From contig JAFCCL010000002.1 in NCBI GenBank assembly GCA_017610205.1, positions 71,481-135,480 on the forward strand: 64,000 bases of DNA, read 5' to 3'. The notes under the pieces are model-generated. The model saw only the letters and a program-made list of their open reading frames with translations, ran no database searches and was not told the origin of the DNA. Positions 5,038 through 64,000 of this stretch are shown piece by piece; the first letter of the stretch is position 1, and the number at the start of each line of letters is the position of its first letter. The position numbers and the translations under genes were made by a program. The DNA comes from Candidatus Iainarchaeum sp. (GTDB taxonomy: Archaea; Iainarchaeota; Iainarchaeia; Iainarchaeales; GCA-2688035).

Positions 5038-5067
5038 AAATAAAGCACACTCCTTAACGCATAAAAT

Positions 5068-8015: not shown

Positions 8016-8753
8016 TCACTTCCCTTTCTCCACTTTGGCAAATTTTTCTCTCAAAGCCACTTTTTGTGCCTCATAAACCTGATTACAGCCTTGAATGCCA
8101 AGCTTTACAGCCTTATTCCATTCAGGTTTTGTGATTGGGCCATCCATCTGCAAAAGAACAATTTCTTCAGTTCTTGGCATTATTGCAATTGGAATATCAA
8201 CTGCATCAGGCGCATCTTCCTCGTCCTTATTCAGGTCAAGAATTATTTCACCACCTGCCTTTCCAACTCCAACAGCACATACAAGATCCTTCATTGGAAT
8301 TCCTGCATCTGCAAGTGCAACACTTGCAGCTGTTATTCCTGCCGCCCTTGAACCTGCGTTGCTATCAAAAATCTCAACATAGATATCAATTGCACAGTTT
8401 GGAAACCTTTCAAGGAAAATTGACTTTTCCAAAGCTTCTCCTGAAACCTTGCTTATTTCAGATTCACGTCTTCCTGGTCGTGGATTTTTCCTGTCAGGAA
8501 CGCTAAATGTTGCCATTCTGTAAGTAAACCTCACTAGTCCCTTGTAGGGATTCTGCTTGTGTTTTGGCAAAGCCTCTTTTGGTCCGTGCACTCCAACCAA
8601 CACCTTGTTCTGCCCCCATTCAAGGTAAGCTGAACCATCAGCGTTTGGTAAAACACCAACCTTCATTTTCAAAGGCCTTATTTCGTCAACTTTTCTTCCA
8701 TCAAGCCTTTTTCCGTTTTTTACATATTCAATTTTTTCATCTTTTTTAGCCAT
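8016..8753 (-). CDS. rrp41: Exosome complex exonuclease Rrp41 (RNase PH)
   Basis: 245 aa. GRRESEISK phosphate-binding motif and RNase PH domains. Confidence 0.9.
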   Translation of the reverse strand: MAKKDEKIEYVKNGKRLDGRKVDEIRPLKMKVGVLPNADGSAYLEWGQNKVLVGVHGPKEALPKHKQNPYKGLVRFTYRMATFSVPDRKNPRPGRRESEISKVSGEALEKSIFLERFPNCAIDIYVEIFDSNAGSRAAGITAASVALADAGIPMKDLVCAVGVGKAGGEIILDLNKDEEDAPDAVDIPIAIMPRTEEIVLLQMDGPITKPEWNKAVKLGIQGCNQVYEAQKVALREKFAKVEKGK

Positions 8754-9481
8754 TATTCATTCACCTTTTTCCCTTTTAAAAATGCTTCAACTTTTACAGT
8801 AAGATTGTCCAAGTGAGCTTCTGATTCAATCAAATTAATTGCTTCAGCAAGCTTTTTTTGATCTCCGCCCTTTGACCAAATCCAACCGTTTCTTCCAATT
8901 AGAAGGCTGGATCCTGTTCCCTCTTTGAGAACAGCAAGCATGCTTCCATTTTTTCCAATCATTCTTGGAACCTTTGCAGGAACCACCCTAATTATTGTGC
9001 CACCGTAAAAAACACGCACATCAAAAAGGTCTGCTTCATTTACTTCGTTTACGCTGTCAATTTTAGCGCTTACAATGCTTCCCTTTTCAAGCCTGTCCCT
9101 GCATTTGTCTGCAGAAAGATAACAAGAATAAATACTGTTTATGTCAACCATATAACCCTTTATTGTTTCCCTTTCAACAATTCCCACAATAAGATCGTCC
9201 CTTTGAGGGAGATATATTCCTGAAAGCGGGACAACATACGCTGTTCCTGAATTAGGGTAAGTTATTCCAAGAGCGTCTGAATAAATCTTGCCATTTTCAA
9301 TAAAAACATGCTGACCTAATTTTTTTCTTCCCTCAGCAATAAGATCTCCGGGAATAACTATTTTTTTCTCTTTGTGTTCAGCCCTGCCCTCTTCAGGCAT
9401 TGGCTTTGCTTCGGCCTTTGTTTCTTTAGCCACAGGCACTGCATCTTTTGGCATTGCCATTTCCTCTTTTTTATTTTCCAT
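8753..9481 (-). CDS. rrp4: Exosome complex RNA-binding protein Rrp4 (S1+KH) with K/E-rich N-terminal extension
   Basis: S1 domain followed by KH (GKNGSMLAVLKEGTGSSLLIGRNGWIW). N-terminal about 40 aa are KE-rich. Confidence 0.8.
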   Translation of the reverse strand: MENKKEEMAMPKDAVPVAKETKAEAKPMPEEGRAEHKEKKIVIPGDLIAEGRKKLGQHVFIENGKIYSDALGITYPNSGTAYVVPLSGIYLPQRDDLIVGIVERETIKGYMVDINSIYSCYLSADKCRDRLEKGSIVSAKIDSVNEVNEADLFDVRVFYGGTIIRVVPAKVPRMIGKNGSMLAVLKEGTGSSLLIGRNGWIWSKGGDQKKLAEAINLIESEAHLDNLTVKVEAFLKGKKVNE

Positions 9482-9489
9482 TTATAAAA

Positions 9490-10185
9490 TCACTTCTCCA
9501 AAATTTTTGTTTCAACATCACCATGGCATGTACCGTTCAAGTCGTTCAAAAAATCCTGCCTTAAACCCGCAGGCATTTCAACAACGGCAACAAGGTTTCC
9601 GTTGCCCTGCCATTCCTCTTTTAGCAATTTATACTTGTGCAATATGTGCTCGGTTTTTGCGGCATGAACTGCAGGAATCTTAATTGCAATCTTTATCTGT
9701 TCAAGGGAAATCGGAAGAATTTTTTTCAGCTCCTTCAAAATGCCCGAAACCTGCTCTTCAACACCTTTCATTTCATCAATCTTTATTTTGGCTTCAGCCA
9801 AAGCATTTTCAATTCTTTGCGGCGGATGCGGAGCATTTGTCTGAGGATTCATTGCATTTCTTGAAATAAACTCAATAACCTCTTTTACCCTGATATCCCT
9901 TATATGCCTTCTCTGCTCTGTTGTAAGCTGAACATTGCCCTGGTTGACAATCTTTTTGGCTATTTCAAAAACGTCGGTTGTTGCAAATGCCTTATTTAAG
10001 GCTTCAGGACTCTGCTCTGTTCCCTTTGCAGCATCTTTGAAAACCGTTTCCACAGCAAGCAAGTCTGAAAAATCTACAGGATTTCCTTTTCTCAGCTCAA
10101 GAGCAAGATCAGGATCTACAAGAATTTCAAACTTTTCTCCGTGGCTGTCAAACCTTGCGGTTACAGCATCTTCCAATTTGACCAT
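9490..10185 (-). CDS. sbds: SBDS/Sdo1 family ribosome maturation protein
   Basis: 231 aa. ARFDSHGEKFEILVDPD N-terminal signature, in the canonical position between psmA and rrp4. Confidence 0.8.
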   Translation of the reverse strand: MVKLEDAVTARFDSHGEKFEILVDPDLALELRKGNPVDFSDLLAVETVFKDAAKGTEQSPEALNKAFATTDVFEIAKKIVNQGNVQLTTEQRRHIRDIRVKEVIEFISRNAMNPQTNAPHPPQRIENALAEAKIKIDEMKGVEEQVSGILKELKKILPISLEQIKIAIKIPAVHAAKTEHILHKYKLLKEEWQGNGNLVAVVEMPAGLRQDFLNDLNGTCHGDVETKILEK

Positions 10186-43799: not shown

Positions 43800-44120
43800 T
43801 TGATTCCAAAATTTGGATTATCGGAAATCCCTAATCCGACAAAGAGTTTTCTAAGACGTCTTGGGTTTAACCTTCAACAAGTTAGAGAGTTTGGCTTTGA
43901 AGAAATCAAAGAACAACTGCTTAAAATTTCTAATTCTGAGAAAACAGGGTTAAATAAAAGGGAAAAGCAAGTTGTAAAATTAAGGCTTGATGGAAAAGAC
44001 GGTTCTGAAATAGGAAAAGCTTTGAGTAGCAGTAGGCAGTGGGCTAGTAAGTTTCATACAAGTGCAATAAAAAAGATAAAAATACAGCTTGAAAAAAAGC
44101 GCCCTTCCTCTGGGACTTAA
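43800..44120 (+). CDS. Small sigma-70-region-4/LuxR-like HTH protein
   Basis: LNKREKQVVKLRLDGKDGSEIGKALSSSRQWASKFHTSAIKKIK. The stop overlaps the mcm stop convergently. Confidence 0.4.
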   Translation: MIPKFGLSEIPNPTKSFLRRLGFNLQQVREFGFEEIKEQLLKISNSEKTGLNKREKQVVKLRLDGKDGSEIGKALSSSRQWASKFHTSAIKKIKIQLEKKRPSSGT

Positions 44121-47100
44121 TCCTTCCTTGTTGGCTTTAAGAAATTGTGCCTTGGCCTGTATAATTCACCATTCTTTTCAAGCTTTTGAATCAGGTCTCT
44201 CGCCCTTTCCTTATCAATGCCTTCAGAAACAGCTTCGTTTAATACATCCTGCAATGGAACATTGTCCATTTCAGCTGCCTTTTCTCTCAAAATTGAAAGA
44301 ATCTTTCTCATATTTGTTATCTGAGTATGAGTTTGTCCGGTCATAATAATGTCATAATCTATTTTTCCTGTTTCAGGATCTGTTACAACATCGCTCAAAC
44401 TTGCCTTAACAAGCTTTATAGCTCTTTCAGCATCCTCTTTTTCAGCAGTGTCTGAAAGCCTTATTCTTGCACTTGCCTCTGCAAGCCTTACAAGCCCTTC
44501 AAGCTGCCTGTGAGTAGCAGCATAGCTTCCCTCTTTTCTGCCAATATCCCTTAAACCAATATAAAAATCCCCAATTGCCTGAATTGCTTCCTTGCTCATC
44601 ACAGGAAAAATATTTTGCCTTGTAAAAGAAATGTACTTTCCCAAAAGCTCTGGGTCAACAGGCGGGGTTGAAATTAATTCAATGTCTTCCTGGTCTTCCT
44701 TTTTGAGAGCATTTCCTTTTTTCTTGTACTGTGAAATTAATTCACCGCTTTTGTGAGTTTTCAAAATGTGTGCTGTTATGGCTTCGTCCTTTGTCCTGTC
44801 CAACACATCCTTTATCATAAAGAAAAGGTCAAATCGTGAAATAAGCGATGCAGGCAAATTAATTTGTTCAATGAAAGGAGTATATTGTTCAAACCTTGAC
44901 ATTTTGGGGTTTGCAGCAGCAAGAATGCTTGTGTCAGATTTAAACCTTGTTACAATTCCGGCTTTTGCAACCGAAATCATTCCCTGCTCCATTGCCTCGT
45001 GCATTGCACTTCTGTCCTCTGCATCCATTTTGTCCAATTCATCAACCATGCAGATTCCGCCACTGCTTAAAACAAGAGCTCCTGCTTTTAGAGTCCAGCC
45101 TCCTTCACCAAAATCATCCTTAACAGCCGAGGCAGTGTTATGGACAAAAATTCCATTTGCAATAAAATTATGATCTTTTTTAACAGAAAAATCGTAAACA
45201 AATTCATAGCATGGCTTGAAGCATTCTTTTTCTGACACCTCTTCCCATAGGATATCAGATTTTGCAAGCTGTTTAAGCAATAAATTATTAAAAGATTTTT
45301 TTCTAACAAACTTTTGAAGTTTTTTTCTTGAAATGTTTAACCTTCCACTGCTGTAAATCCATTCTGCGTTTTGGTTTTTTAGCAATTGATGTATACTTGG
45401 AATTATATCAATGTTTGTATTTTCCTCAGGTGCTTTTGAAATAAGTTCTCTTAACTTTTTCTTTTTTTCTACAAGATTGAATCCTATTTGCTTTTCAAAT
45501 GTTTCAATGTTTTTTTTGCCTCTTATTTCAGTATAATACTGGTCATGGCTGCTTGTTACAGAAATTTTTTTTTCTACGGCAATTTTTTCGGCCTTTTTCC
45601 TTTTTCTCAGCTTGCTCTGGATTCCAAATTTAAGCAATGCCAAATGAAGACTTTTTGCAAGCCCTTTGCTTATTGTAGTAATTCCAACACTTGAAGAATA
45701 GTTTTTCCCAATGACAACCCAGCCATCAGTATCAAAAAGACCTTGTAACAACTTTGCCAAAATATTATTTGGCATTTCTGTTGCAAGATGCGAGATTCTT
45801 ATCCTGGTTTTGTCACGATTAAGCCCAAATGCCTTCAATAGCTCACATACAACCCTATAGCTGATTCTTCTCGCAGGCACTCTAAAACCGTCGTTAATTT
45901 TTTCAGGAAGCAAACCAAACAGTTCCAAAGATATGGCATCAATTTCTTGTAGCAGTTGTTCAGTAGCACTGAATATTCTTATTGTTGAGGTGCCGTTGCC
46001 TTTTTCCCAAAGGCTTCCGTCTCCAAGCGCAAGACCTGCAAGATATGCAAGTTTTTCATTATCAAGGTATATTGGAATTTTCATTGGCTTTCCATGGTTT
46101 ACAAAAACCTCAGAAATCTGTTTTGATATGTCCTCCAAAGAAAACCCAGCTTCTTGACTCAATTCAATTAAATTTTTAAGAGAAATTGCATGATAGTGTC
46201 GTTTGTTTCTTATAGCATAGATGGTATCCCTGCTTTTGCCAATTTTTTTTGCTATTTTCTGCAAAGACCCGTAATCTTTAACAAGAATGTCTGTTATTTC
46301 TTTCAGTAATTCAGCAACATTATCTTTCACCAGAATGTTTTTGTCATTGGCAAGCAAGCTTATTGAAGGAATGTTTTTTTTGTTTCCTTCAGGCAATTTT
46401 CTTGGACACGCAACAAAATCCCCTTTTCCAAGGTCTTCTGATTTAACCCATTCAATTTTGTTGTCTTTTAATCTAACAAGCGAAGTGTTTGGAGTGAGCT
46501 CTATTTCTTTCCCAAGCCTTGTTTTAATTCTAATCATTTCTTCAGGTGCCTTTATTTTCCAAATTTTGTAAATATCTTCCTTTTCAAGCTTCAACTTTGA
46601 ACCCAAACAATGGCTTTTTCCGCTAAAATTATTTGCCCAAGCATTTGGAATTTCTTCAACCGAATTTTCTTCACAAAAATTTTCTTCAACAAAATCCTTA
46701 ATTGGCTTGAAACCGTTGTCATTAAGAATTAAGGAATCCGGAGCTACACACAAACCCACACCAGAAGTTGTCTTTCCAGCAGTGTAAATGCTTCTTGGAG
46801 CAATATTGTGAGAAGACTGAAGGATTTGACTCTTTCCTGTTCCAGGATCTCCAACCAGCAAAACATGAACATTGCCCCTGATGGTTTGGTTTCCCGGCAA
46901 ATGCTTTTTGACTCCTCCAAAAAGCTGCAGTATAATTGATTCCTTTACAGTTTCGTGCCCATAAATTGCAGGCGCAATGCTTTTTGTAAGCTTTTCATAA
47001 ATTTCAGGATTTTCTGCCAAAGCCCTTATTTCGTTCTCCTCCTCAGGCGTTACCTCAACAGATTCAAATTCCCGCTGGGTTTCCTCCAAATGCAATGCCT

Positions 47101-47833
47101 CCAAATACCTTCCATAAATTGTTTTCTTTTTGTCAGGCAAAGCAAGCCTTAAAATTCCAACAAACCTTGTTTTGTCACCTGCACTAATTCTGTTAACCAA
47201 ATCGTCTGCAATATAAATATTAAGAGTTGAAGCCTGTTCATTTCCCTTAAGCTTTTCCAAAGGCTCCTGAATTTCAATTCTTTGACTGTCAATAAATTCT
47301 GATTGCTCTGGCACAAGCTCAAAGTCTCTGTGCCTGCACTCGCAAAAAGAAGGCATTTGAAGCTGCTGGTTATCCTGCTTTTTCTTATAAGTGTTGCCAC
47401 AGTGCTTGCATTTCCACACTGCAAGCTGTAATTTTGGCATAACTGTTGTAATTTGCCTTACAATACCTTCAACAGCAATAAGCTTTCCCAACTGCTTTGC
47501 ACTAATGTCTCTGACAAGGGGCTCGTGTTCTTTTGGCAAATTAAAAAAACGAACGTGTGGTGAAAATTTTTCAATTTCAAGAGCAGGAACCTCTATTTGT
47601 TCAACTGCATCCTTTGCAGCCTCCAAAAGAAGTTCAGGGCGGTCAAGAACTGCATCAGCAAGCTCTATGTCAAACCTCTCCAAAAGAGTAAAGTCAATAT
47701 CAAGGCTTCTTTTGTCAGGATAGTTTTCAACAAGCCTTTCAAGCTCTCTTTTGTAATTTGCTTCAAAAAATTCCAAGAATTTGGAAACGTAAGGGCTTTC
47801 ACTGTCCTCCCTGATTTTTTCCTCCAAAGACAT
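44117..47833 (-). CDS. mcm: MCM replicative helicase containing a 538-aa LAGLIDADG intein
   Basis: 1238 aa. Zn finger CKHCG...CEC, Walker A GDPGTGKSQ, arginine finger SRFDL. The intein lies between ...TSGVGL and TASAVKDD.... Confidence 0.9.
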   Translation of the reverse strand: MSLEEKIREDSESPYVSKFLEFFEANYKRELERLVENYPDKRSLDIDFTLLERFDIELADAVLDRPELLLEAAKDAVEQIEVPALEIEKFSPHVRFFNLPKEHEPLVRDISAKQLGKLIAVEGIVRQITTVMPKLQLAVWKCKHCGNTYKKKQDNQQLQMPSFCECRHRDFELVPEQSEFIDSQRIEIQEPLEKLKGNEQASTLNIYIADDLVNRISAGDKTRFVGILRLALPDKKKTIYGRYLEALHLEETQREFESVEVTPEEENEIRALAENPEIYEKLTKSIAPAIYGHETVKESIILQLFGGVKKHLPGNQTIRGNVHVLLVGDPGTGKSQILQSSHNIAPRSIYTAGKTTSGVGLCVAPDSLILNDNGFKPIKDFVEENFCEENSVEEIPNAWANNFSGKSHCLGSKLKLEKEDIYKIWKIKAPEEMIRIKTRLGKEIELTPNTSLVRLKDNKIEWVKSEDLGKGDFVACPRKLPEGNKKNIPSISLLANDKNILVKDNVAELLKEITDILVKDYGSLQKIAKKIGKSRDTIYAIRNKRHYHAISLKNLIELSQEAGFSLEDISKQISEVFVNHGKPMKIPIYLDNEKLAYLAGLALGDGSLWEKGNGTSTIRIFSATEQLLQEIDAISLELFGLLPEKINDGFRVPARRISYRVVCELLKAFGLNRDKTRIRISHLATEMPNNILAKLLQGLFDTDGWVVIGKNYSSSVGITTISKGLAKSLHLALLKFGIQSKLRKRKKAEKIAVEKKISVTSSHDQYYTEIRGKKNIETFEKQIGFNLVEKKKKLRELISKAPEENTNIDIIPSIHQLLKNQNAEWIYSSGRLNISRKKLQKFVRKKSFNNLLLKQLAKSDILWEEVSEKECFKPCYEFVYDFSVKKDHNFIANGIFVHNTASAVKDDFGEGGWTLKAGALVLSSGGICMVDELDKMDAEDRSAMHEAMEQGMISVAKAGIVTRFKSDTSILAAANPKMSRFEQYTPFIEQINLPASLISRFDLFFMIKDVLDRTKDEAITAHILKTHKSGELISQYKKKGNALKKEDQEDIELISTPPVDPELLGKYISFTRQNIFPVMSKEAIQAIGDFYIGLRDIGRKEGSYAATHRQLEGLVRLAEASARIRLSDTAEKEDAERAIKLVKASLSDVVTDPETGKIDYDIIMTGQTHTQITNMRKILSILREKAAEMDNVPLQDVLNEAVSEGIDKERARDLIQKLEKNGELYRPRHNFLKPTRKD
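45137..46750 (-). mobile_element. MCM intein with LAGLIDADG homing-endonuclease domain
   Basis: Begins CVAPDSLIL (Cys1) and ends FVHN, with Thr at +1. Internal YLAGLALGDGSL and LLQGLFDTDGWV motifs. Confidence 0.8.
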
Positions 47834-48280
47834 TTTTTACCACTTTATAAAAATTCTCCCATTTCTCCCTTTTAAAACCGCTTCAAAGAGCAGGTTTCCG
47901 CTAAAAATCCCCTTCAGAAGAGTTTCCCCTAATATTCCAGAAATCAAAAAAAATTCGTGTTGGATTGAAAAAAAAATCTTTCAATACTATTAGTACACTA
48001 AAATAATTATAGGTAAGCAATTGACAAAACAAACCAAAACAAGAATGACTAATTTGGAAAGCAAACCCATTACCCAATATTTGAAGGAGGAGGCCGCTTT
48101 CTTGTCCTCATAATCTTTCTTGGAACTCCTGACGGACCAAGCATTGAGGGAACCCGATTATTTCTCCGTATGCGGTTCAATCACCTCTTAAGCCAGGCAG
48201 GAATATCCAACCTCATATTGTAATAATACTCAAAACACTGTATTAAGGTTTTGGGGAAAAAGAGATCTGATTTTGCTATC

Positions 48281-48330
48281 GTTTTCCCCTCATCATCTCC
48301 AATTCCGAGTTTTTTCTTAGGACTCTGCTT
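48281..48330. repeat. Copy A of a conserved ~50-nt non-coding motif (copy B at 60693-60742, ~88% identical)
   Basis: gttttcccctcatcatctccaattccgagttttttcttaggactctg versus gtttctcctcatcacctccaattccgaattttttcataggactctg. Confidence 0.7.
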
Positions 48331-48459
48331 TCCTTGACGGAAAAAGGCAAAGGGTTAATAAATTTGGCGATGTTAATATTGGTGTATGACAAAGAAGGAA
48401 TATTTGGCCAAACTTAACAAATTTATTAAGGCAAGTAATATTCGAAAGACTTAACCAGC

Positions 48460-48972
48460 TTAATCAGTAATTAGCATTCTTTTCATTTCAAATTCTTTTA
48501 GAGTTCTTGGGGAAATGTTTTTGTCAGTTGTATGAAAGCAAACACAACCATACTGGTAGCCAACTGCTATATTGATAGCGTCTTTAAATCCACAAACAGT
48601 ATCAGATTTTACTGCCTTTTTCACCAATTCCAAAGTTTTGTTATCAACATTGTATATTTCAATTTCAAAAGTTGAGATTATGAAATTCAACGCATTCATT
48701 AACGGTCCAGTTTTCACTAAAGAATTGTCCATTTGTGCAGTATGAATTCGTTTTACTACCTCTCCAATTGCATGCGTACTGGTCAAAGACTTTCTCTGTT
48801 TTCCTCTAAAAGAGTAAAGTAAGTCGTCACACGTTTTTTTCTTTCTTTCAGCCAATAAAGTTCCAATAAATACGTCAGCATCAATAAAGTGCAATTGCTG
48901 TTTTTCTATTATTCGGTCTCTCTTTTTTCTTAACTTGTTGTGCTTTTGGTAGCGATGTTTGTCTGTCATCAC
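48460..48972 (-). CDS. PIN-domain nuclease (VapC-like) with basic N-terminal leader
   Basis: LHFIDADVFIG ... DAINIAVGYQYGCVCFHTTDKN acidic PIN residues. Confidence 0.6.
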   Translation of the reverse strand: MMTDKHRYQKHNKLRKKRDRIIEKQQLHFIDADVFIGTLLAERKKKTCDDLLYSFRGKQRKSLTSTHAIGEVVKRIHTAQMDNSLVKTGPLMNALNFIISTFEIEIYNVDNKTLELVKKAVKSDTVCGFKDAINIAVGYQYGCVCFHTTDKNISPRTLKEFEMKRMLITD

Positions 48973-49123
48973 GTAAATTGGAAATAGGATTGTTTAAAAT
49001 TCTATGGAAATTTCCGTCTATTGCCCAATTCAGAATTTTTTCAAAAAGGCAGTGGTTACTTGGCAGTGGACTATTATAGAAAGGAATAAAAGACTTTGAT
49101 GGGGTGATAATTATTTGATATAG

Positions 49124-50593
49124 ATGCAAAAAACATTTTTCATTAGCACGGCTATAGATTATCCCTCTGGAATTTTTCATCTCGGTCATGCATACGAAAA
49201 AATAGTTACTGACACTATTGCAAGGTGGAAACGATTAGAAGGCTATAAAGTCTATTTTAGTACTGGTACAGATTGTCACGGCTTAAAGATTCAGCGAGCA
49301 GCAGAAAAAGCAGGAAAAGAACCAAACGTCTTTGTTGAAGAAATTTCTGACTTGTTTAGGGACTTATGCAAAGTCCTCAATATTTCATACGACGACTTTA
49401 TTATGACAACAGAGAAAAGACATGTGAAAGTAGTCAACGAGATACTCAAGAAAATTCATGAAAAAGGCGACATCTACGAAGGAGAATACGAGGGAAACTA
49501 TTGTGTTGATTGTGAAACATTCTACACAGAAAAAGATTTAGTAAATGGAAAATGTCCTACTCACAAAAAAGAAACAGAAAGAGTTAAAGAAAAAAGTTAT
49601 TTCTTCAAAATGAGCAAGTATCAAAAAAAACTTGTTGAAGACCTGAAAAACAATCCAAATTCGCTTTGGCCAGAAAAGAAAAGAAATGAAATTCTGAATA
49701 GATTAAAAGAGCCTTTGAAGGACTTGACCATAACCAGGGAGAAGGTAACGTGGGGAATTCCTCTGCCGTTTGACAAAAACCTTACAGTGGCTGTTTGGGT
49801 TGATGCACTAATAGATTATCTGTCAACCTTGGACTATCCAAACGAAAAATTCAAAAAATTCTGGCCGGCAACACATGTCATAGGCAGTGACATTGTCTGG
49901 CATCACGAAGTTATTTGGAAAACACTGCTTCTTTCATTAGGAATCCCTCTTCCAAATGTAATCGTTCACGGATTCATTAATCTAAAAGGAGAAAAACTAA
50001 GCAAAGCAAGGGGTATAACAGTTGACCCAATAAAATTGGCAGAAAAATATTCAACAGACGCCCTTCGCTATTTCCTTCTTCGTGAAATACCATTTGGACA
50101 GGACGGCAACTTTTCAGAAGCTGCATTAAAGCTGCGTTTGAACAACGAGCTTGCTAACGAACTCGGAAATCTCGTGAACCGTAGTTTAGTTATGATTGAG
50201 AAAAAGGCAGGTGGAAAAATTCCTGCCTCAAAAACAGATGCTTCACTGCAGAAAAAACTTGACTTGAAGAAAATTGAAAAGAAAATGAATGACTTAGAAT
50301 TACATCACGCCCTTGCGGAAATATTTTCATTTGTTTCAGCCTGCAACCAGTTCATTAACGAAAAAGAACCCTGGAAGCAGAAGGGAAAAGACCTTGAGCA
50401 AACACTCTACTCTTTGGCTGACAGCATTAGAATAATTTCAATTCTACTGCAACCATTCATTCCTGAAACAAGCAAAAAAATCAACAAGCAGCTTGGAGTA
50501 AAGTCAGGTTTGCTAAAGGACTGCAAGTTTGATTTGCTAAAAGAGAGAACAAAGGTTAAGAAAGGAGAAATTTTGTTCAAGAAGGTTGAGTAA
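49124..50593 (+). CDS. metG: Methionyl-tRNA synthetase (short form, no C-terminal tRNA-binding domain)
   Basis: HLGHAY (HIGH), Zn knuckle CVDCETF...CPTH, KLSKAR (KMSKS). Confidence 0.9.
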   Translation: MQKTFFISTAIDYPSGIFHLGHAYEKIVTDTIARWKRLEGYKVYFSTGTDCHGLKIQRAAEKAGKEPNVFVEEISDLFRDLCKVLNISYDDFIMTTEKRHVKVVNEILKKIHEKGDIYEGEYEGNYCVDCETFYTEKDLVNGKCPTHKKETERVKEKSYFFKMSKYQKKLVEDLKNNPNSLWPEKKRNEILNRLKEPLKDLTITREKVTWGIPLPFDKNLTVAVWVDALIDYLSTLDYPNEKFKKFWPATHVIGSDIVWHHEVIWKTLLLSLGIPLPNVIVHGFINLKGEKLSKARGITVDPIKLAEKYSTDALRYFLLREIPFGQDGNFSEAALKLRLNNELANELGNLVNRSLVMIEKKAGGKIPASKTDASLQKKLDLKKIEKKMNDLELHHALAEIFSFVSACNQFINEKEPWKQKGKDLEQTLYSLADSIRIISILLQPFIPETSKKINKQLGVKSGLLKDCKFDLLKERTKVKKGEILFKKVE

Positions 50594-54583: not shown

Positions 54584-57199
54584 ATGCCGGAAAAAAAAGC
54601 AAAGAAAAAAACAGCCAAGGTTTCAAGAGAAAAAGAAACACCAAAGCAAATTGTCACAAAAATAGACAACATGGCAAAAGGCATTGTTACAGAAATTAAA
54701 AAAGGCACCGACCCAGAATTTGTCACCCAGCAAAGGGGAAGAAGCAATGTTGAATTTGACGAAAAAAGAGGCATACTGCAATTGGGAGAGAAAAGAACCA
54801 CAAGAAACTTTTTGAACGTAGGACATGCAAAAAAATTTATGCAAACAATGCTTGTTTCAGCAAAAGCACATGACTACTTAAAGCACAACAAAACCGCTTC
54901 AATCAGAGAAATTTATTACGAATTAAAACACACTGTTCCAAACACAAAAGAAAACACTTTTGACAACCAAACCGAATCAGACTCATGCATTGTAGACCTT
55001 GAACATAGTGTTGACACAATCAGAGAGAAGCTAAACCTGCATGCAAACCCAAAAGGAACACTTTACGGTGACGTAGTCTTAAAGGACAAAGTCCACCACA
55101 ACGACAAATTCAACTGCGGAAAGCTTGGAAGAGGCGGGTGGAGCATTATGTCAAGGCTTGAACCGGAAGAAATTGAAATTGTTTCATGCAATGCAAAATA
55201 TATTCTGGTAATAGAAACAGCAGCAATGTATGAAAGACTTGTAGAGGAAAAATTTCCGCAAAAAAACAAATGCGTCCTTATTGGAACAGGAGGACAGGCA
55301 GCAAGAGGAACAAGAAGGCTTATTCACAGACTGCACAAGGAAAAGAAACTTCCGGTATTAGTGTTCAGCGTTGATGGTGAAGAAACTATTGTACTCGAAG
55401 AAGATGGTTTGATTAAAAATGTTCAACTAAAAGAGCTAATGAAAAACAAAGAAATTGTAAAAATTGACGGAGTTATTGAAAATGAAAGGGCAGGAATAAA
55501 CGCAAAATCAATGTGCTTTGATAATAAGAAAACAGGCTTTGGGCAAATAAATCAGATAATAAGGCATCCGATTGTTGAAGACCTTTTTGAAGTAAAAACA
55601 GATTTGGGTTACAGTGTAAAAACAACAAAGTCACATAGCCTAATCGTCTATGACTCTAAGAAACACGAGTTTGCGGAAAAAACACCTCTGGAAGTTGATT
55701 TGGAAAAAGATTTTGCAGTAGTAAGTCTTGATGTTCCAAACAACGAAAGCCTGGAAAGAATTGACTTGGGAAGATTTGTATTTAATCATGCAAATGCTAA
55801 AGTAAACAAAGAGAGGATAACAAACAAGAAAAATAAGCTTTCAATTCCAAGATTCATTGATAAAGAAAACCTGCCGGACTTTTGCAGATTGCTTGGGTAT
55901 TATGCAGCAGAAGGATACGCAGAAGAATACAATACCGTTTTCAGCTTCAGCAAAAAAGAAATAGATTACATTAAAGATGTTGCAAATATAACAAAAACAT
56001 TATTTGAATTAGAAACAAAAGAATACAACCCACATAGCACAGAAACACAAGTAAAAATCCATAACACCCTGCTTTCAACAATTTTCAAAAACATTGCTTC
56101 AACAGGTTCAGGAAACAAAAAAGTGCCTGACATTGTATTCAATGTTCCGACAAAAGCTAAAAAAGAATTTTTGAAAGGCTATTTTAGGGGAGATGGCAGA
56201 GTAGATTTCAAGAAAGAAAAATCATCTGTCGAGCTCTGGGCAAAAACAGTAAGCAAAAAACTTGTCTATGACTTGGTTTTGCTTATCTCACAGATTGGTG
56301 CAAATGCAACAATCCAATACCCGAAAGAAAGCGAGGAAGAGCACGAAGTCGAAATGGAAACTGCTTCAGGAATCCAAAAAACAAAGATTGCTGCAAAGCA
56401 AAAACCCTACCTTGTAAGCATTGCAAACAAAGAGGCCTTGCTTGAGTTGAAAGATATTGTAGCAGAACTCAGACCGGAAGCGTTGGAACATATAGAAAAC
56501 AATTATATCAAAACACCAAAAATTGACAGCTTGCCAAGAGAGTTTGTTGAGAAATTTAGAGAAACCTTTAGAAATGAGTTCAGGGGCGAGCTTGAGAAAA
56601 AATTGCCTCCAGCAACATTTCAATGGCCAAGAATTTCAAAGAAAAAACTGCGCAGGCTACTCAATGGCAGGGATTTAAGCAAAAATTTACAAGTTTTAAA
56701 AGAGTTTGCTAACAACAAAACGACACTTGCAAGAATAAAAAGTGTGGAAAAAACCGAACCAAAAGATAAATATGTTTACGACATAGAAATGGCAAACACA
56801 CACAGGTTTTTCTCAAACTTCATTTGTGTTCACAACACAGATGGAGACCCTTATGGATGGTATATTTACAGCGTAATAAAACAGGGTTCAATGGCATTGG
56901 CAGCCCACTCAACTTTTATGGCCTGCCCTGAAGCAAAATACATTGGAATGACTTTAGACGACATCGAAACATACCAGCTTCAAAACGTTACAGAAAGAAT
57001 GAAGGAAGGAGACATAAAAAGAGCAAAAGAAATGATGGAATATCCCTGGTTCCAAAACAAAGACTGGCAAGCCCAGCTGAAAAAAGCATTAAAGGAAAAG
57101 GTTAGAATAGAACAGCAGGCACTGGCAAACAAAAGCCTTGAATTTGTTGCAACAGAATACCTTCCAACAAAAATCAAAAACAAAGACTTTTTGCCATAG
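54584..57199 (+). CDS. top6A: DNA topoisomerase VI subunit A (Spo11 homologue) containing a 490-aa intein
   Basis: 871 aa against about 370 expected. Exteins ...KLPVLVF | TDGDPYGWYIY... restore the Toprim motif. Confidence 0.9.
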   Translation: MPEKKAKKKTAKVSREKETPKQIVTKIDNMAKGIVTEIKKGTDPEFVTQQRGRSNVEFDEKRGILQLGEKRTTRNFLNVGHAKKFMQTMLVSAKAHDYLKHNKTASIREIYYELKHTVPNTKENTFDNQTESDSCIVDLEHSVDTIREKLNLHANPKGTLYGDVVLKDKVHHNDKFNCGKLGRGGWSIMSRLEPEEIEIVSCNAKYILVIETAAMYERLVEEKFPQKNKCVLIGTGGQAARGTRRLIHRLHKEKKLPVLVFSVDGEETIVLEEDGLIKNVQLKELMKNKEIVKIDGVIENERAGINAKSMCFDNKKTGFGQINQIIRHPIVEDLFEVKTDLGYSVKTTKSHSLIVYDSKKHEFAEKTPLEVDLEKDFAVVSLDVPNNESLERIDLGRFVFNHANAKVNKERITNKKNKLSIPRFIDKENLPDFCRLLGYYAAEGYAEEYNTVFSFSKKEIDYIKDVANITKTLFELETKEYNPHSTETQVKIHNTLLSTIFKNIASTGSGNKKVPDIVFNVPTKAKKEFLKGYFRGDGRVDFKKEKSSVELWAKTVSKKLVYDLVLLISQIGANATIQYPKESEEEHEVEMETASGIQKTKIAAKQKPYLVSIANKEALLELKDIVAELRPEALEHIENNYIKTPKIDSLPREFVEKFRETFRNEFRGELEKKLPPATFQWPRISKKKLRRLLNGRDLSKNLQVLKEFANNKTTLARIKSVEKTEPKDKYVYDIEMANTHRFFSNFICVHNTDGDPYGWYIYSVIKQGSMALAAHSTFMACPEAKYIGMTLDDIETYQLQNVTERMKEGDIKRAKEMMEYPWFQNKDWQAQLKKALKEKVRIEQQALANKSLEFVATEYLPTKIKNKDFLP
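55367..56836 (+). mobile_element. Top6A intein (Ser1 ... HisAsn, +1 Thr) with LAGLIDADG endonuclease domain
   Basis: Starts SVDGEETIV and ends FICVHN|T. Internal LLGYYAAEGYA and FLKGYFRGDGRV motifs. Confidence 0.75.
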
Positions 57200-58681: not shown

Positions 58682-60655
58682 CTACTTCCCCCTATACCCA
58701 ACCAGCTTTTTGAGGTAGGGAACGATTTCAGGGTTTTGAAGAGTACTTGCGTCTCCGAGTTTTTCGTTTACAAGGATGCTTCTAAGAAAGCGCCTCATTA
58801 TTTTTCCGCTTCTGGTTTTTGGCAAACCCTTTACAAAAAAGATTTGATGTGGCTTGGCAGTTGGGCCAATTTCCTTTTTCACCTGCTTTACTATACTGGC
58901 TTCAACCTCTGGAGAAGGTTTTACTTCAGGTCTTAAAACAATAAATGCAACAGGAACCTGCCCCCTGATTTCATCAGGCTTTGGAACAACAGCAGAAACA
59001 ATAACCTCTGGATGTGAAGTAATTGCATCCTCCACCTCTGCACTGGACAAGCGATGGCCTGCAACCTTCATAACGTCGTCAACCCTGCCAGTAACCCTGA
59101 TATTGTGCTTGTCATACCATTTTGCTCCGTCACTTGTATAGTAAACCTTGGGACCGTACTCTGACCAGTAAGTGTCTCTGTACTTCTTTGGGTTTTTCCA
59201 AACTCCGCGAAGAAGCCCTGGGGGAAAAGGAGGCCTAAACACAAGGTAACCAGTTTCACCCTTCTTAACTGGCTTGCCTTTGTCATCCAAAATGTCTGCC
59301 ACTGTACCAGGGAAAGGTCTTCCGGCAACAGTTGGAATAAATGGACCAACTCCTGGAAGAGCATTTACTAAAGTTCCGCCTGTTTCAGTCTGCCACCAAG
59401 TGTCAATTACCGGACAGCAATTGTTGCAAATGTGTTTGAAATACCAATGCCATGTTTCCATATCAATTGGTTCTCCAACAGTTCCAAGAATTCTCAAAGT
59501 GGAAAGGTCGTAGTGCGCTGGCCACTTTACACCCATTTTCTTGAACATCCTGATTGCGGTTGGTGCAGTGTAGAATACACTTACATCAAATTTGTCAGCA
59601 ATTTTCCAAAGCCTTCCCCAATCAGGCATATCAGGGCTTCCCTCATAAATAACCATTGTAGCACCAACAGAAAGGGGACCGTAACAATTGTATGTGTGGC
59701 CGGTAATCCATCCAATGTCTGCAGTGCACCAGAAGACATCGTCTTCGTGAATGTCAAAGTTAAACAAAGTAGTCCAATAAGCTTGGGTTAAGTAACCGGC
59801 AGTGTCGTGGATTACTCCCTTTGGCTTTCCGGTTGTTCCAGAAGTGTAAAGAAGGAATAAGGGTGTGTTTGATTCCACTGGAACAGCTTTGGAATCCTCG
59901 CTTGCCTTTGCCATTAGGTTGTGGTACCACAAATCACGACCTTTCTTCATTGCAATTTTTACTTTTGTCTTGTTATCAAACCTTTTGACAACAACAACCT
60001 TCTTAACCGACTTGGCAGAGGCTGCAACATCAGCCTGATTTTTCAAAACAATTGGCTTTCCTCTCCTGTAATAGCCATCACAGGTAATCAAAACCTTGGC
60101 TTCACAGTCTTCCACCCTTTTCTTGAAGTTTGAGCCTGAAAACGCTGAGAATACAACACTGTGAATTGCTCCAATTCTCGCACAGGAAAGCATTGCAACC
60201 ATTACCTCAGGAATCATTGGCAGGTAGATTCCAACCCTGTCTCCTTTTTTCACTCCGAGCTTGCGTAGCACATTGGAGAACTTGCAAACTTCTCTGTACA
60301 ATCCACGGTAAGTAATCTTTCTCTCCCTCTCAAACTCCGGTTCCGCCTCCCAGATTATTGCAACCTTGTTTCCCCTTGTTTCCAAGTGCCTGTCAAGGCA
60401 ATTATAGCTTGCATTTAACTGCCCTCCAAGAAACCATTTGAAGTAAGGCGGCTTTCCCTCATAAACCTTTTTCCAAGGCTTGGACCAGGTTAATCCATCT
60501 CTTGCAAGATTTGCCCAAAAGTCCTTTGGGCTCTTAGCTGCATCCTTGTAAATTCGGTCAGTACCAACCCAGGCTCGCTCCCTCATTTCGTCAGACGGCC
60601 AGAAAACGTTTTTCTTATTTTTATCTTTTACAACAAGCTTTGGACCAGGAGACAT
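58682..60655 (-). CDS. acs: Acetyl-CoA synthetase (AMP-forming)
   Basis: 657 aa. YTSGTTGKPKG AMP-binding motif and C-terminal SGKIMRR. Confidence 0.9.
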   Translation of the reverse strand: MSPGPKLVVKDKNKKNVFWPSDEMRERAWVGTDRIYKDAAKSPKDFWANLARDGLTWSKPWKKVYEGKPPYFKWFLGGQLNASYNCLDRHLETRGNKVAIIWEAEPEFERERKITYRGLYREVCKFSNVLRKLGVKKGDRVGIYLPMIPEVMVAMLSCARIGAIHSVVFSAFSGSNFKKRVEDCEAKVLITCDGYYRRGKPIVLKNQADVAASAKSVKKVVVVKRFDNKTKVKIAMKKGRDLWYHNLMAKASEDSKAVPVESNTPLFLLYTSGTTGKPKGVIHDTAGYLTQAYWTTLFNFDIHEDDVFWCTADIGWITGHTYNCYGPLSVGATMVIYEGSPDMPDWGRLWKIADKFDVSVFYTAPTAIRMFKKMGVKWPAHYDLSTLRILGTVGEPIDMETWHWYFKHICNNCCPVIDTWWQTETGGTLVNALPGVGPFIPTVAGRPFPGTVADILDDKGKPVKKGETGYLVFRPPFPPGLLRGVWKNPKKYRDTYWSEYGPKVYYTSDGAKWYDKHNIRVTGRVDDVMKVAGHRLSSAEVEDAITSHPEVIVSAVVPKPDEIRGQVPVAFIVLRPEVKPSPEVEASIVKQVKKEIGPTAKPHQIFFVKGLPKTRSGKIMRRFLRSILVNEKLGDASTLQNPEIVPYLKKLVGYRGK

Positions 60656-60746
60656 AGTAATCGAAAATAATAGGGGGTTTTAGAATAAAAATGTTTCTCC
60701 TCATCACCTCCAATTCCGAATTTTTTCATAGGACTCTGTTTTTCTC

Positions 60747-60800
60747 GGATTAAACATTTCCCTGCCTTTGGCAGGTCGGCTGCACCTAAATGTTTAATCC
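60747..60800. promoter_or_regulatory. Perfect 13-bp inverted repeat (GGATTAAACATTT ... AAATGTTTAATCC) with an internal CCTGCC/GGCAGG hairpin
   Basis: Seen directly in the sequence. It lies in the divergent region between acs and the small-ORF operon, directly after motif copy B. Confidence 0.55.
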
Positions 60801-60857
60801 CTCCAAAAACAGCAGGGACGTCCATGAAAAAAATTCATTCTAAATTGGAGGTGATAG

Positions 60858-60992
60858 ATGATGAGTTTTTCTCAAAAACTTTCAGAAACAAAAGATAATC
60901 CAGTTGGTTATGGAAGGTCTTTTGTTGAAATCTCTGAAGCCATAAAAAGGAATGAGACAGCCAGAGAAGCATGGAAGAGGCGACTGTTATGA
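60858..60992 (+). CDS. 44-aa small protein, first gene of a translationally coupled operon
   Basis: Strong SD GGAGGTGA lies 7 nt upstream. MMSFSQKLSETKDNPVGYGRSFVEISEAIKRNETAREAWKRRLL. The stop overlaps the next ATG (ATGA). Confidence 0.35.
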   Translation: MMSFSQKLSETKDNPVGYGRSFVEISEAIKRNETAREAWKRRLL

Positions 60993-61138
60993 ACATAGTA
61001 GTTTCCACAATCTTCTTGTTCATAATGTCAGTGGTGTTCTTGCAGATTGTAGAACTTAACTTGGAAGACACAGAAATCCTAACCTATGCTGTTGGGTTCT
61101 GTATTGGTATAACAAGTGAGTGGTGGTTTCCAATATGA
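60989..61138 (+). CDS. 49-aa single-TM small protein
   Basis: MNIVVSTIFLFIMSVVFLQIVELNLEDTEILTYAVGFCIGITSEWWFPI. ATGA overlaps at both ends. Confidence 0.35.
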   Translation: MNIVVSTIFLFIMSVVFLQIVELNLEDTEILTYAVGFCIGITSEWWFPI

Positions 61139-62412
61139 AATCACCGGAAACCCACTCTCCAAAGCGCCTTAAAAGGCAAGCGGGAAAATCTATGAGAGTA
61201 AGGAAAATGAACAAGGAAGATTTGACTAAAGAGTTGCTTGAGGAACTTTACAACAAGAAAGGTTTCTCTCTCGACCGAATTGTCAAAGAAGTTGGTTGTG
61301 AAAGAACAATAGTCTACAATCGTTTGAAACAATTTGAGATAAAAATGAGGCCTCCTTATAGAAAAGATCTCAAAATAGAAAAAGAAGTTTTGGAAAAGCT
61401 TTACTGGAAACAAGGATTTTCTTTTGAAGAAACAGGAAAAAAGCTTGGTTGTTGTGGGGCAAATGTTTCTTATTGGATGAAAAAGCATGGAATAGAAACA
61501 AGGCCAATTGGATACAATGAAATTGTAATTCCAAAAGAAACTCTTCAAGAGCTTTATTGGGATAAAAAATTGACAGCACAGCAAATTGGAGAAAAATTTG
61601 GGACTAATCACAGAAGAATTTTAAAAAAGATGAAAAAGGCAGGAATTGCAAGCAGAACATTGTCAGAAGCAGGAACAAAAAAATTCAAAGCGCCATTCAC
61701 AGGCGGCTTAGACGAAAAAGCATTCCTGTTAGGACTTAGAACAGGAGACTTCTACGCAAAACAGCAGCACATATCTGTGAGAATGCAAACTACATCCACA
61801 CATCCAGCACAAGTCGAACTACTAAGAAAGTCACTTGAAAAATATGGCGAAACAAAAACGTACTATAACACAAACAAAGCAAGAGAAGATGAATGGTTTA
61901 TTTATGCTGACCTTGATAAGTCTTTTGAATTTCTTTTAAAGAAACCAAATGAAATCCCTCAATGGATTCTAGAAAATAAGAACTGCTTTTACAGTTTTTT
62001 GTGTGCATATTCAGACTGTGAAGGAAGCTTTAGTATTATCAAAAGCTATGAAAATAGTACGAGGTTTATATTCAGAATAACAGCAGGCGACAAGAAGGTT
62101 CTTGAACAGATAAAAAGCACATTAGAATCTTATGGATACAACCCAAGACTCTACTTTAAGTCAAAGAAGGGCTTACAAGGAACTTTTGGTACATTTAACT
62201 TGGATATGTACAACTTTATAATGTACAAAAAAGAAGAAACACTTAGCTTGATAAAAAATTTATTTCCACACAGCAAACACAAGGAGAAAATTGACAAGAT
62301 GAAATACATTCAAGAAAACAAAGACAAGAACTGGGCTGAAATAATTGGAGGATGGAACAAAATTAGAGAGGGGATAAAAGCAGGGTTGTTAAAAAACAAT
62401 TTACAAGAATAG
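61135..62412 (+). CDS. Free-standing LAGLIDADG-type homing-endonuclease-like protein with three N-terminal NUMOD1/sigma-r4-like HTH repeats
   Basis: Three repeats of the form (L/V)LExLYxxKGFSxxxIxKExG...V..RLKxxGI. The C-terminal domain has LLGLRTGDF and FLCAYSDCEGSF motifs. The ATG at 61135 is coupled to the upstream stop. Confidence 0.6.
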   Translation: MKSPETHSPKRLKRQAGKSMRVRKMNKEDLTKELLEELYNKKGFSLDRIVKEVGCERTIVYNRLKQFEIKMRPPYRKDLKIEKEVLEKLYWKQGFSFEETGKKLGCCGANVSYWMKKHGIETRPIGYNEIVIPKETLQELYWDKKLTAQQIGEKFGTNHRRILKKMKKAGIASRTLSEAGTKKFKAPFTGGLDEKAFLLGLRTGDFYAKQQHISVRMQTTSTHPAQVELLRKSLEKYGETKTYYNTNKAREDEWFIYADLDKSFEFLLKKPNEIPQWILENKNCFYSFLCAYSDCEGSFSIIKSYENSTRFIFRITAGDKKVLEQIKSTLESYGYNPRLYFKSKKGLQGTFGTFNLDMYNFIMYKKEETLSLIKNLFPHSKHKEKIDKMKYIQENKDKNWAEIIGGWNKIREGIKAGLLKNNLQE

Positions 62413-64000
62413 CGGCACCGCAATCAAGGCAACTATTGTCATTAGTTTAAGAATAATATTAATTCCAACTCCGCTGCAATCTTTAAATCCGTCTCCTACC
62501 GTGTCTCCAACCACTGCAGCTTTGTGAGCTGTAGAACCTTTTCCACCAAATTGTCCAGCTTCAATGTATTTCTTTGCGTTATCCCAACTGGCACCAGCAG
62601 TTGTCTGAAAGACAGCCATAAGGAAACCTGTCGCAATTGCACCTGCGAGGAAACCTCCAAGAGCAGCCACACCTAAAACCGAGCCAACCGCTATTGGGGC
62701 AAGCATGGCAATCAGACTTGGCACAATCATCTCCCTTAAAGCAGCCTGTGTACTAATTGAAATACATTTATCATAATCCGGTTTTGCCTTACCCTGCATC
62801 AGACCTTTAATTTCTCTAAACTGCCTTCTAACCTCTTCAACCATTTTTATTGCAGCATTACCTACAGCACTCAACATAAAAGCACTAAACACAAACGGTA
62901 TCAACGCCCCAAGAAACAGCCCGACAATTACAACCGGCTGAGCAATATCAATGGAACTAAGATTCGCAACAACAATATAAGAGGCAAACAATGCAAGAGC
63001 AGTTAAGGCCGCAGAACTTATTGCAAAACCTTTTCCAATTGCAGCAGTGCTGTTTCCAACTGCGTCAAGCAACTCAGTCCTTTCCCTGACTTTTTTGCCC
63101 AAGCCAGCCATTTCAGCAATTCCTGCAGCATTGTCTGCAACACTTCCATAAGTGTCAGCTGCAAGAGTAATGCCCAAAGTGCCAAGCAGTCCAACAGCGG
63201 AAATCGCAACACCCATTACTCCTGCAAAATAATAGCTTACAAGAATTACTGCACCAACAGTAATAACAGGAATTGCTGTTGAAAACATTCCTGTACTAAG
63301 ACCTGCAATGACATTTGTTCCTGCACCGGATTTTGCCGCTTCAGCAATCTTTTGTGTTGGACTGTGAAAAGGGCTTGTTACAAATTCTGTTGCATAGCCA
63401 ATTATTAAAGCCCCAACAAGTCCTGCGACAATTGCAAAGAAAAAGCCAAGGGTTCCAAGGAAAAAGACAAGGAAAAAGTATGAAATTATTGCCATAAAAA
63501 GTGCTGCTGCAAAAATGCCTTTGTCAATTGCTCCAAAAATGTTTTTCTTTTTGGCTTTTACAAAAAGTGTTGAAATAATTGAGGCGACAATTCCAATTGC
63601 TGCAAGGGCTAATGGAATCAAAATGCCGTTTGTTCCCATAAAAGCAGCTCCTAAAACCATTGCTGCAATTATTGCGTCAACATAGCTTTCAAACAAGTCT
63701 GCACCCATTCCTGCAACGTCACCAACATTGTCTCCAACATTGTCAGCTATTACTGCAGGATTTCTTGGGTCATCCTCAGGAATGTTTTTTTCTATTTTAC
63801 CAACAAGGTCTGCTCCAACGTCAGCTGCCTTTGTGTAAATTCCTCCTCCAACTCTTGCAAACAAGGCAATGCTACTTGCACCAAAGCCAAATCCGAAAAG
63901 AATGTTTGGATCCTGAAAAATAAGATATGACAAGGTAACTCCAAGCAAGCCAAGGCCTACTACTGCAAAACTCATTACTGAACCTGAAGCAAAGGCAACT
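62401..64000 (-). CDS. hppA: H+-translocating pyrophosphatase (C-terminal ~530 aa; N-terminus lies beyond the window end)
   Basis: GGGIYTKAADVGADLVGK, DNVGDNVGD, and C-terminal DNAKKYIE...GDTVGDGFKD motifs. The reading frame is open to position 64000. Confidence 0.9.
   Translation of the reverse strand, partial: VAFASGSVMSFAVVGLGLLGVTLSYLIFQDPNILFGFGFGASSIALFARVGGGIYTKAADVGADLVGKIEKNIPEDDPRNPAVIADNVGDNVGDVAGMGADLFESYVDAIIAAMVLGAAFMGTNGILIPLALAAIGIVASIISTLFVKAKKKNIFGAIDKGIFAAALFMAIISYFFLVFFLGTLGFFFAIVAGLVGALIIGYATEFVTSPFHSPTQKIAEAAKSGAGTNVIAGLSTGMFSTAIPVITVGAVILVSYYFAGVMGVAISAVGLLGTLGITLAADTYGSVADNAAGIAEMAGLGKKVRERTELLDAVGNSTAAIGKGFAISSAALTALALFASYIVVANLSSIDIAQPVVIVGLFLGALIPFVFSAFMLSAVGNAAIKMVEEVRRQFREIKGLMQGKAKPDYDKCISISTQAALREMIVPSLIAMLAPIAVGSVLGVAALGGFLAGAIATGFLMAVFQTTAGASWDNAKKYIEAGQFGGKGSTAHKAAVVGDTVGDGFKDCSGVGINIILKLMTIVALIAVPLFL

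Follow-up and report, generated by a model that had tools for sequence, protein, structure and literature searches.

The window, i.e., the whole stretch of 64,000 nt that was analysed (GC ~37%, archaeal), carries the same motif of about 50 nt at two places: copy A lies in the gap between the genes of MCM and MetRS, copy B between acs and a divergent operon of small ORFs and a LAGLIDADG gene. What is this motif a part of, and which gene does it serve? In an earlier note it had tentatively been taken for a shared regulatory site of acs and mcm or for a family of small RNAs. On balance, the evidence is judged to lean towards another answer: copy B would be the 5' arm of a leader hairpin of ~155 nt that silences the endonuclease operon by sequestration of its Shine–Dalgarno sequence (SD), and copy A would be a relic.

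Results and Discussion

The repeated motif

Genes and motif copies of the window:
44117-47833, − strand: MCM, intein-bearing
48283-48342, + strand: copy A, read as a left-arm relic, model positions 2-54 (nhmmer, synteny)
49124-50593, + strand: MetRS
54584-57199: Top6A, intein-bearing
58682-60655, − strand: acs (acetyl-CoA synthetase)
60694-60753, + strand: copy B, left arm with the 5' strands of helices 1-4
62401-63975, − strand: H+-PPase

The nearest named relatives, by MetRS and ORF3, were DPANN MAGs (Diapherotrites, Woesearchaeota, Aenigmarchaeota, Nanoarchaeota); exact look-ups of the ORF1 and acs proteins returned no record. Intein content varied among close relatives: MCM carries one intein in the window and in L024, two in L025; the Top6A intein of the window has no counterpart in L025. 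LAGLIDADG elements are thus clearly turning over in this lineage.

Set in register from 48283 and 60694, the copies were identical at 41/45, 44/50 and 47/55 bases, the positions first reported for them being right to within 1-2 nt; a 40-nt degenerate consensus had exactly 2 sites in 64 kb vs 0 in 100 shuffles. Both copies lie outside plausible genes and are non-coding, as had been supposed. Coding on the minus strand (a 65-aa ORF at 60628-60825 and a K-K-F/L-G-I-G frame common to both copies) was considered and rejected: copy A lacks a start codon in the frame, and most of the differences between the two copies are replacement changes. The inverted repeat next to copy B, GGATTAAACATTT-N28-AAATGTTTAATCC, was found to be perfect over 13 nt (60747-60759 / 60788-60800).

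The motif is conserved and non-coding, but it is not the whole element. The repeat scan gave it an inverted partner of its own further right (60703-60721 vs 60837-60855), so that 60702-60856 is a single long imperfect palindrome and the motif its left arm only; the right arm (60805-60856) had been overlooked.

Leader hairpin

Features of the hairpin (all + strand):
60702-60856: complete leader hairpin, 46 predicted bp, 5 helices, variable apical loop (RNAalifold consensus)
60702-60711: helix 1, 5' strand, anti-SD CATCACCTCC
60718-60727: helix 2, 5' strand GAATTTTTTC
60731-60734: helix 3, GGAC
60736-60743: helix 4, 5' strand CTGTTTTT
60747-60800: helix 5, apical 13-bp stem (60747-60759 / 60788-60800)
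60805-60856: right (3') arm (repeat scan, folds, RNAalifold)
60805-60812: helix 4, 3' strand AAAAACAG
60820-60823: helix 3, GTCC
60826-60836: helix 2, 3' strand GAAAAAAATTC
60847-60856: helix 1, 3' strand, SD-containing, GGAGGTGATA
60847-60855: SD GGAGGTGAT of ORF1, fully paired with 60702-60711

Pairing in the RNA is predicted as follows: helix 1, CAUCACCUCC (60702-60711) with GGAGGUGAUA (60847-60856); helix 2, GAAUUUUUUC with GAAAAAAAUUC; helix 3, GGAC with GUCC; helix 4, CUGUUUUU with AAAAACAG; helix 5, a stem with compensatory changes that encloses a nested mini-hairpin (60761-60775) and a loop whose sequence is not conserved. The 3' end of the hairpin stands 1 nt before the start codon of ORF1, and the anti-SD CAUCACCUCC pairs with the SD GGAGGUGAU of the small-ORF/HTH-LAGLIDADG operon on the plus strand; this pairing of 60847-60855 with 60702-60711 is kept in 8/8 loci (see below). 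The heptamer GGAGGTG occurs only 3 times in 64 kb, and 2 of these occurrences are the two arms of the hairpin.

The same 46-bp hairpin was predicted by the RNAalifold consensus on 7 and on 8 homologous leaders. RNA folding of 60697-60866 gave an MFE of −62.4 kcal/mol (z = −6.9 vs shuffles) with the SD fully paired, and the leaders of L011 and L025 folded alike; the DNA fold of the leader was also exceptional (−40.6 kcal/mol, z = −8.7). A fold and covariance check of both copies had been proposed in the earlier note; it was positive for the region of copy B, which has covarying pairs besides its low z-score, and negative for that of copy A (z about 0 vs shuffles). The covariance model scored 152.6 bits on the plus strand vs 45.1 bits on the minus strand. 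The palindrome anatomy, together with the interpretation of copy A as a relic, is given high confidence.

No curated Rfam family (riboswitch, leader, sRNA) reached the gathering threshold in the window: in the scan with Rfam 15 only two tRNAs did so, and permissive scans of both copy regions returned chance-level matches only.

Related loci and covariation

Eight distinct loci were compared: the window, L001, L008, L010, L011, L019, L025 and L027. L001 and L008 were found by DNA pattern (GTDB genomes; JGI metagenomes), L010, L011, L019 and L027 on contigs with ORF3 homologs, L025/L026 by MetRS synteny; L012-L015 are identical to L011 over the leader. The consensus gave nothing beyond the two copies of the window, and the pattern scans gave L001 and L008 with one genuine site each, motif, hairpin, SD and small ORFs being conserved together in both. 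The metagenome scan, made with a strict pattern, yielded 7 chance matches and 1 real one. Scans of viral contigs with the motif pattern were empty and BLAST vs phage and plasmid sequences gave no match; a phage or plasmid origin of the element was rejected on these two results. No hairpin was found upstream of the distant ORF3 orthologs L016-L018 and L021-L023 (53-55% identical); the contig of L020 ends ~245 nt upstream of ORF3.

L001 (JAFCBY010000038.1) goes by the label of a CPR bacterium, Candidatus Falkowbacteria. Two tRNA genes of 90-93 nt are found on it, tRNA-Pro and tRNA-Phe, at 5035-5127 (−) and 5617-5706 (+), both apparently intron-containing. The long intron-type tRNAs and the archaeal cassette indicate that it is probably a mis-binned DPANN contig. 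The tRNA-Pro prompted the idea of an att site of a tRNA-integrated element, which was dropped: the motif lies outside the tRNA, and the other loci lack one.

In the alignment of the eight distinct leaders (171 columns), 96.5% of 367 pair cells were standard pairs vs 40-56% when the partners were slid by 1-3 columns; changes on both sides were seen at 5 pairs, and the covariation score was reached by 0/500 shuffles. The SD and the anti-SD covary at pair 10/156, AUCACCUCC/GGAGGUGAU being replaced by AUCGCCUCC/GGAGGCGAU in L011, L019 and L027 (A-U to G-C); pair 43/113 has U-A, A-U and C-G forms among the loci. Mean identity of the hairpin arms was 88% (91/127 columns invariant), the apical loop being free to vary; the flanking acs and ORF3 DNA was 72-77% identical. 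Leaders that are ~87% identical stand ahead of endonuclease proteins that are only 29-38% identical.

Because all eight sequences come from close relatives, the compensatory events that are independent are few. All double changes went from Watson–Crick to Watson–Crick pairs, G-U pairs were 0 in 367 cells, and several mismatched cells were C-A, i.e., U-G wobbles if read on the opposite strand. An identical pattern would be expected from a DNA hairpin or palindrome, or from an RNA of the opposite strand, so that covariation by itself points to no one molecule or strand. No variation was seen in helices 2 and 3 or in several of the unpaired stretches, which hints that, besides pairing, the sequence itself is recognised, perhaps by the HTH protein.

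These data bear on a reading in which the palindrome acts in DNA, as an operator for its own HTH-LAGLIDADG protein or as a cruciform/hairpin site for maintenance or mobility of the cassette, the symmetry of the arms being kept by protein recognition or by intra-palindrome repair. I-TevI autorepresses at its own promoter. Such a site would agree with the lack of G-U pairs and the Watson–Crick-only double changes, the invariant helices and unpaired bases, the exceptional DNA fold, the three HTH repeats of ORF3, and the position of the hairpin exactly at the left edge of the conserved cassette. An apical loop that varies while its stem is kept by compensatory change is, however, unusual for a protein operator; a pure DNA site leaves unexplained why the right arm is a perfect SD followed by ATG in 8/8 loci; and the conservation is strongly strand-asymmetric. 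Action in DNA is regarded as unlikely.

Gene served by the element

On the left, homology stops abruptly at the base of helix 1, and the genes beyond this border differ among the loci: the upstream neighbour is a divergent acs in four loci (window, L011, L019, L027), a tRNA-Pro with an intron in L001, mcm in L025 and other genes in L008 and L010. On the other side, the SD has an ATG within 2-8 nt after it in 8/8 loci, irrespective of which ORF lies there. The variable neighbour and the constant SD/ATG position, together with the covariance model (153 vs 45 bits), assign the element to the plus-strand endonuclease operon, not to acs; its place upstream of acs is taken to be incidental. A site shared by acs and mcm is not supported, the upstream neighbour being variable and L024 having mcm without the motif; a shared operator was likewise rejected, since the position of the site is not kept relative to either gene in related genomes. 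What does hold of the first interpretation is a conserved, non-coding and probably regulatory element, now a hairpin family of eight loci.

A likeness to an SD had been noticed on the minus strand. It is meaningful, but GGAGGTGA does not serve there as an SD, having no start codon at a usable distance; read on the plus strand, the same bases are the anti-SD, which pairs with the real SD 140 nt downstream. Each arm might also be seen as an outward promoter or regulatory module (GAAAAAATTC and GGAGGTGAT), the left arm helping to drive acs (copy B) and mcm (copy A); of the readings left, this one comes nearest to the shared site first suggested. The left arm on the minus strand indeed faces acs in the window, L011, L019 and L027, mcm in L025 and an ORF in L008, and a copy A reduced to the left arm would be sensible if it served mcm; it faces, however, the antisense of tRNA-Pro in L001 and of a 182-aa gene in L010. 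Moreover, acs has a TATA-like box of its own between the arm and the ATG, 450 nt separate copy A from mcm, such an arm is missing upstream of mcm in the close relative L024, and two independent promoters need no compensatory changes between them; outward modules are thus quite improbable.

Oligo-T runs are archaeal termination signals, and the 5' halves of the palindrome contain them on both strands (T6 and T5 on plus, T7 and T5 on minus), the T tracts being invariant in all loci; in L001 and L010 a gene on the same strand stops shortly before the element. The idea that the cassette edge carries a transcription insulator or a bidirectional terminator is nevertheless given little probability: in 6/8 loci no same-strand upstream gene is there to be terminated, archaeal termination is not known to need a 46-bp hairpin, and the covariation of SD and anti-SD would have no explanation.

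Archaeal C/D-box sRNAs are 50-70 nt long and carry a C box (RUGAUGA) close to the 5' end and a D box (CUGA) close to the 3' end, besides internal C'/D' boxes. The heptamers on the minus strand are RUGAUGA-like, and a family of small RNAs had been suggested; it would be trans-acting, of the C/D type or another. No CUGA D box was found within ~85 nt downstream of the heptamer in either copy; the Rfam C/D models gave at most 15.8 bits vs gathering scores of 35-39 (E > 5); conservation ends within 2-5 nt of the heptamer. The window has one intact and one truncated copy, and L001 and L008 have a single site each, so that the probability of an sRNA family is practically negligible.

Long imperfect palindromes with sharp borders, in differing contexts and with one truncated copy, might also be MITE-like mobile elements scattered through the genome. 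MITEs occur as numerous solo non-coding copies in a genome, bounded by terminal inverted repeats and target-site duplications. Every full copy is, however, fused to the SD, the ATG and the LAGLIDADG operon; no solo full-length copy was found, nor any multi-copy genome in the GTDB and metagenome scans with the strict pattern, and a MITE is therefore very improbable indeed. A comparison with archaeal origin-recognition-box-like repeats was dropped, the right arm being SD and ATG in every locus and no adjacent orc1/cdc6 being noticed.

Copy A and the gap between mcm and MetRS

With the family profile, nhmmer matched copy A at positions 2-54 only (48290-48342, E = 2e-9); as a whole structure it scored 15 bits in the covariance model (E = 0.24). 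Copy A lacks a right arm and an SD, no ORF follows it, and between mcm and MetRS the window contains no ORF3-like coding remnant. A 12-nt inverted repeat follows at 48355-48366 / 48418-48429; its homology to helix 5 could not be shown.

In L025/L026 (MetRS 82% identical) the same gap holds a complete cassette. In L025 it consists of:
8284-8440: hairpin
next: ORF1 of the MSFSQK type
8606-9208: HTH ORF
9250-9930: LAGLIDADG ORF

The separate HTH and LAGLIDADG ORFs are 29-38% identical to the ORF3 protein of the window. In L024 (MetRS 88% identical) the gap holds a 102-aa C-terminal LAGLIDADG fragment only and no hairpin. The left arm alone in the window, the full cassette in L025 and the fragment in L024 together point to copy A as a relic; it is most plausibly what is left of a second, paralogous cassette between mcm and MetRS, which was later deleted or replaced. 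Full, fragment and scar states are expected from the gain-decay-loss cycle of homing-endonuclease genes; the mcm-MetRS site, with full cassette, gene fragment and 60-nt scar, would be a snapshot of this cycle in uncultivated archaea.

Other observations in this gap are as follows. A 170-aa ORF at 48460-48972 (−) and an overlapping 102-aa ORF at 48881-49189 (−) belong to no Pfam or NCBIfam family; they occupy the place of the L025 cassette, the 170-aa ORF alone filling most of the gap, and may have replaced the second endonuclease cassette. About 240 nt of non-coding DNA upstream of mcm are conserved in three genomes (window 47834-48075; L025 7998-8245; L024 9095-9300); invariants of the block include AAAAAATTCGTGTTGG, AAAGCAAACC and ATTTGG, it has no Rfam match and no fold signal, and it could be the promoter or leader of mcm or an origin-related region. 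The L025 hairpin begins ~40 nt after this block; in the window, ~210 nt (48075-48283) with no L025 counterpart separate the block from copy A, and a 36-aa basic ORF (48070-48180, −) lies within this stretch.

Endonuclease operon

The operon downstream of copy B comprises:
60858-60992, + strand: ORF1, 44 aa, MMSFSQK..., varies between loci
60989-61138, + strand: ORF2, small hydrophobic, taken for a membrane protein, start overlapping the ORF1 stop (ATGA)
61135-62412, + strand: ORF3, three HTH repeats and a double-motif LAGLIDADG part, start overlapping the ORF2 stop (ATGA)

The ATGA overlaps suggest that the three ORFs are translationally coupled to the single sequestered SD. ORF1 matched no Pfam or NCBIfam family, and the homolog search with its 44 aa returned only itself. 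The first ORF after the SD is of the MSFSQK type in 4 loci and of a shorter MK.NP type in L010 and L027; in L011 it is unrelated, and in L019 it is directly fused to ORF3. ORF2 occurs in the window, L001, L008, L010 and L028, whereas L011, L019, L025 and L027 lack it.

ORF3 had 92 homologs, nearly all in DPANN archaea; Pfam LAGLIDADG_3 was matched in 28/39 family members, with invariant G-D at 204/205 and D294/E296. The AlphaFold (AF2) model (pLDDT 87) was matched by Foldseek with probability 1.0 to I-AniI, E-DreI, I-Tsp061I, I-DmoI, PI-PfuI and I-SceI; sequence search alone found no relative among solved structures. By fold and motifs, ORF3 is a homing-endonuclease-type protein and a predicted nuclease. 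It resembles free-standing LAGLIDADG homing genes in the double-motif fold and in the conservation of both acidic residues, and differs from them in its three N-terminal HTH repeats. The latter (61135-61700) gave a weak match to the model of Cbp1, a CRISPR-repeat-binding protein (NF040595, E = 1e-4, 22 bits vs a cutoff of 140), which is only a hint that the ORF3 repeats may bind repeated DNA.

The genes of ORF3 and H+-PPase are convergent and overlap at their 3' ends (62401-62412) in every locus that reaches that far (window, L010, L011-L020 and L028), the 53%-identical orthologs without hairpin included. So stable a position is unusual for a homing-endonuclease-like gene and suggests domestication, or the PPase 3' end as the homing target. 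Unlike a transient invader, the copy beside H+-PPase holds its place down to 53% protein identity and may be a domesticated long-term resident instead of a selfish endonuclease that is still active.

A conserved block, ATCACCGGAAACCC...CCAAAGCGCYTTAAAAG, is found at the start of ORF3 (61140-61175; L019 3035-3080; L020 140-215); it is tandemly duplicated in L019, L020 and L027, and its reading frame differs between loci. It had been considered as a BRE/TATA promoter of ORF3 and was recast as a 5' coding extension of ORF3 by way of the ORF2 ATGA overlap; indels shift the frame between loci, so that the coding reading is not certain, and the block may be more than an N-terminal coding extension, e.g., an internal promoter with TTTAAAAG.

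Proposed mechanism and known systems

For sequestration of the SD, the following course is proposed. CAUCACCUCC, which mimics the 3' end of 16S rRNA, would pair with GGAGGUGAU, the only strong SD of the operon, and four further helices would zip the arms of the hairpin together; a transcript containing both arms would be translationally silent. The endonuclease would then be made from transcripts without the 5' arm, by an internal or alternative start, or after the hairpin had been opened or cut. Upstream of helix 1 lie AT-rich TATA-like boxes, at distances that vary among the loci, so that in some genomes the 5' arm may not be transcribed. It speaks against sequestration that one does not readily see how a hairpin of −62 kcal/mol would be opened. 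Action of the plus-strand RNA, translational repression and the mode of its relief are what we infer here, and the RNA-level mechanism is given about an even chance.

Hairpins that sequester the ribosome-binding site regulate I-TevI, I-TevII, I-TevIII, segB and mobE (Aeh1) in T4-like phages, and a late promoter inside the structure gives rise to translatable transcripts (PMC2988022). The present leader shares with the T4 type, its closest precedent, a consensus SD ~8 nt before the start codon that is buried in a very stable stem next to the endonuclease gene, on its upstream side, and a presumed purpose, to keep a potentially harmful nuclease untranslated on most transcripts. It differs in that it belongs to an archaeal DPANN chromosome, not a phage, and to a LAGLIDADG enzyme, not to GIY-YIG or HNH; at 46 bp and ~155 nt the hairpin greatly exceeds those of the phages in length, and it would control a coupled three-cistron operon; the leader is conserved as a sequence family common to paralogous endonuclease genes; and where the T4 switch is the late promoter inside the hairpin, only the AT-rich TATA-like boxes at variable distance are seen here.

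The mRNAs of type I toxins such as hok/sok combine a long-range 5'-3' fold with a leader ORF and couple translation to a small hydrophobic peptide. The present operon is similar in that the SD is sequestered by a distant upstream complement and a small leader ORF overlaps the small hydrophobic ORF2. It is dissimilar in that ORF2 is missing in 4/8 loci, no antisense RNA gene is evident, and the conserved cargo is the endonuclease; a type I toxin-antitoxin system was rejected on the absence of ORF2 from these loci and on the antisense gene not being identified.

A further variant takes the hairpin for a portable control module exchanged among unrelated DPANN LAGLIDADG genes, with the solo copy A kept for its continuing action on the surviving paralog. 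In a short plus-strand RNA of copy A, CAUCAUCUCC could base-pair in trans with the intact operon's SD; a minus-strand RNA of copy A could instead pair with the 5' arm of the operon and open the hairpin. This is considered hardly probable.

Conclusion

One false lead is removed: neither a regulator shared by acs and mcm nor a C/D-box sRNA family is found here. In its place stands what we infer to be a new sequence family of a known regulatory kind. If sequestration of the SD by the leader hairpin is true, this is, as far as the searches show, a previously uncatalogued cis-regulatory RNA family, absent from Rfam 15 and so far specific to one DPANN clade, in which gene regulation is almost unstudied; the rule of the buried endonuclease ribosome-binding site, known from T4-like phages, would then extend to Archaea and to LAGLIDADG enzymes.
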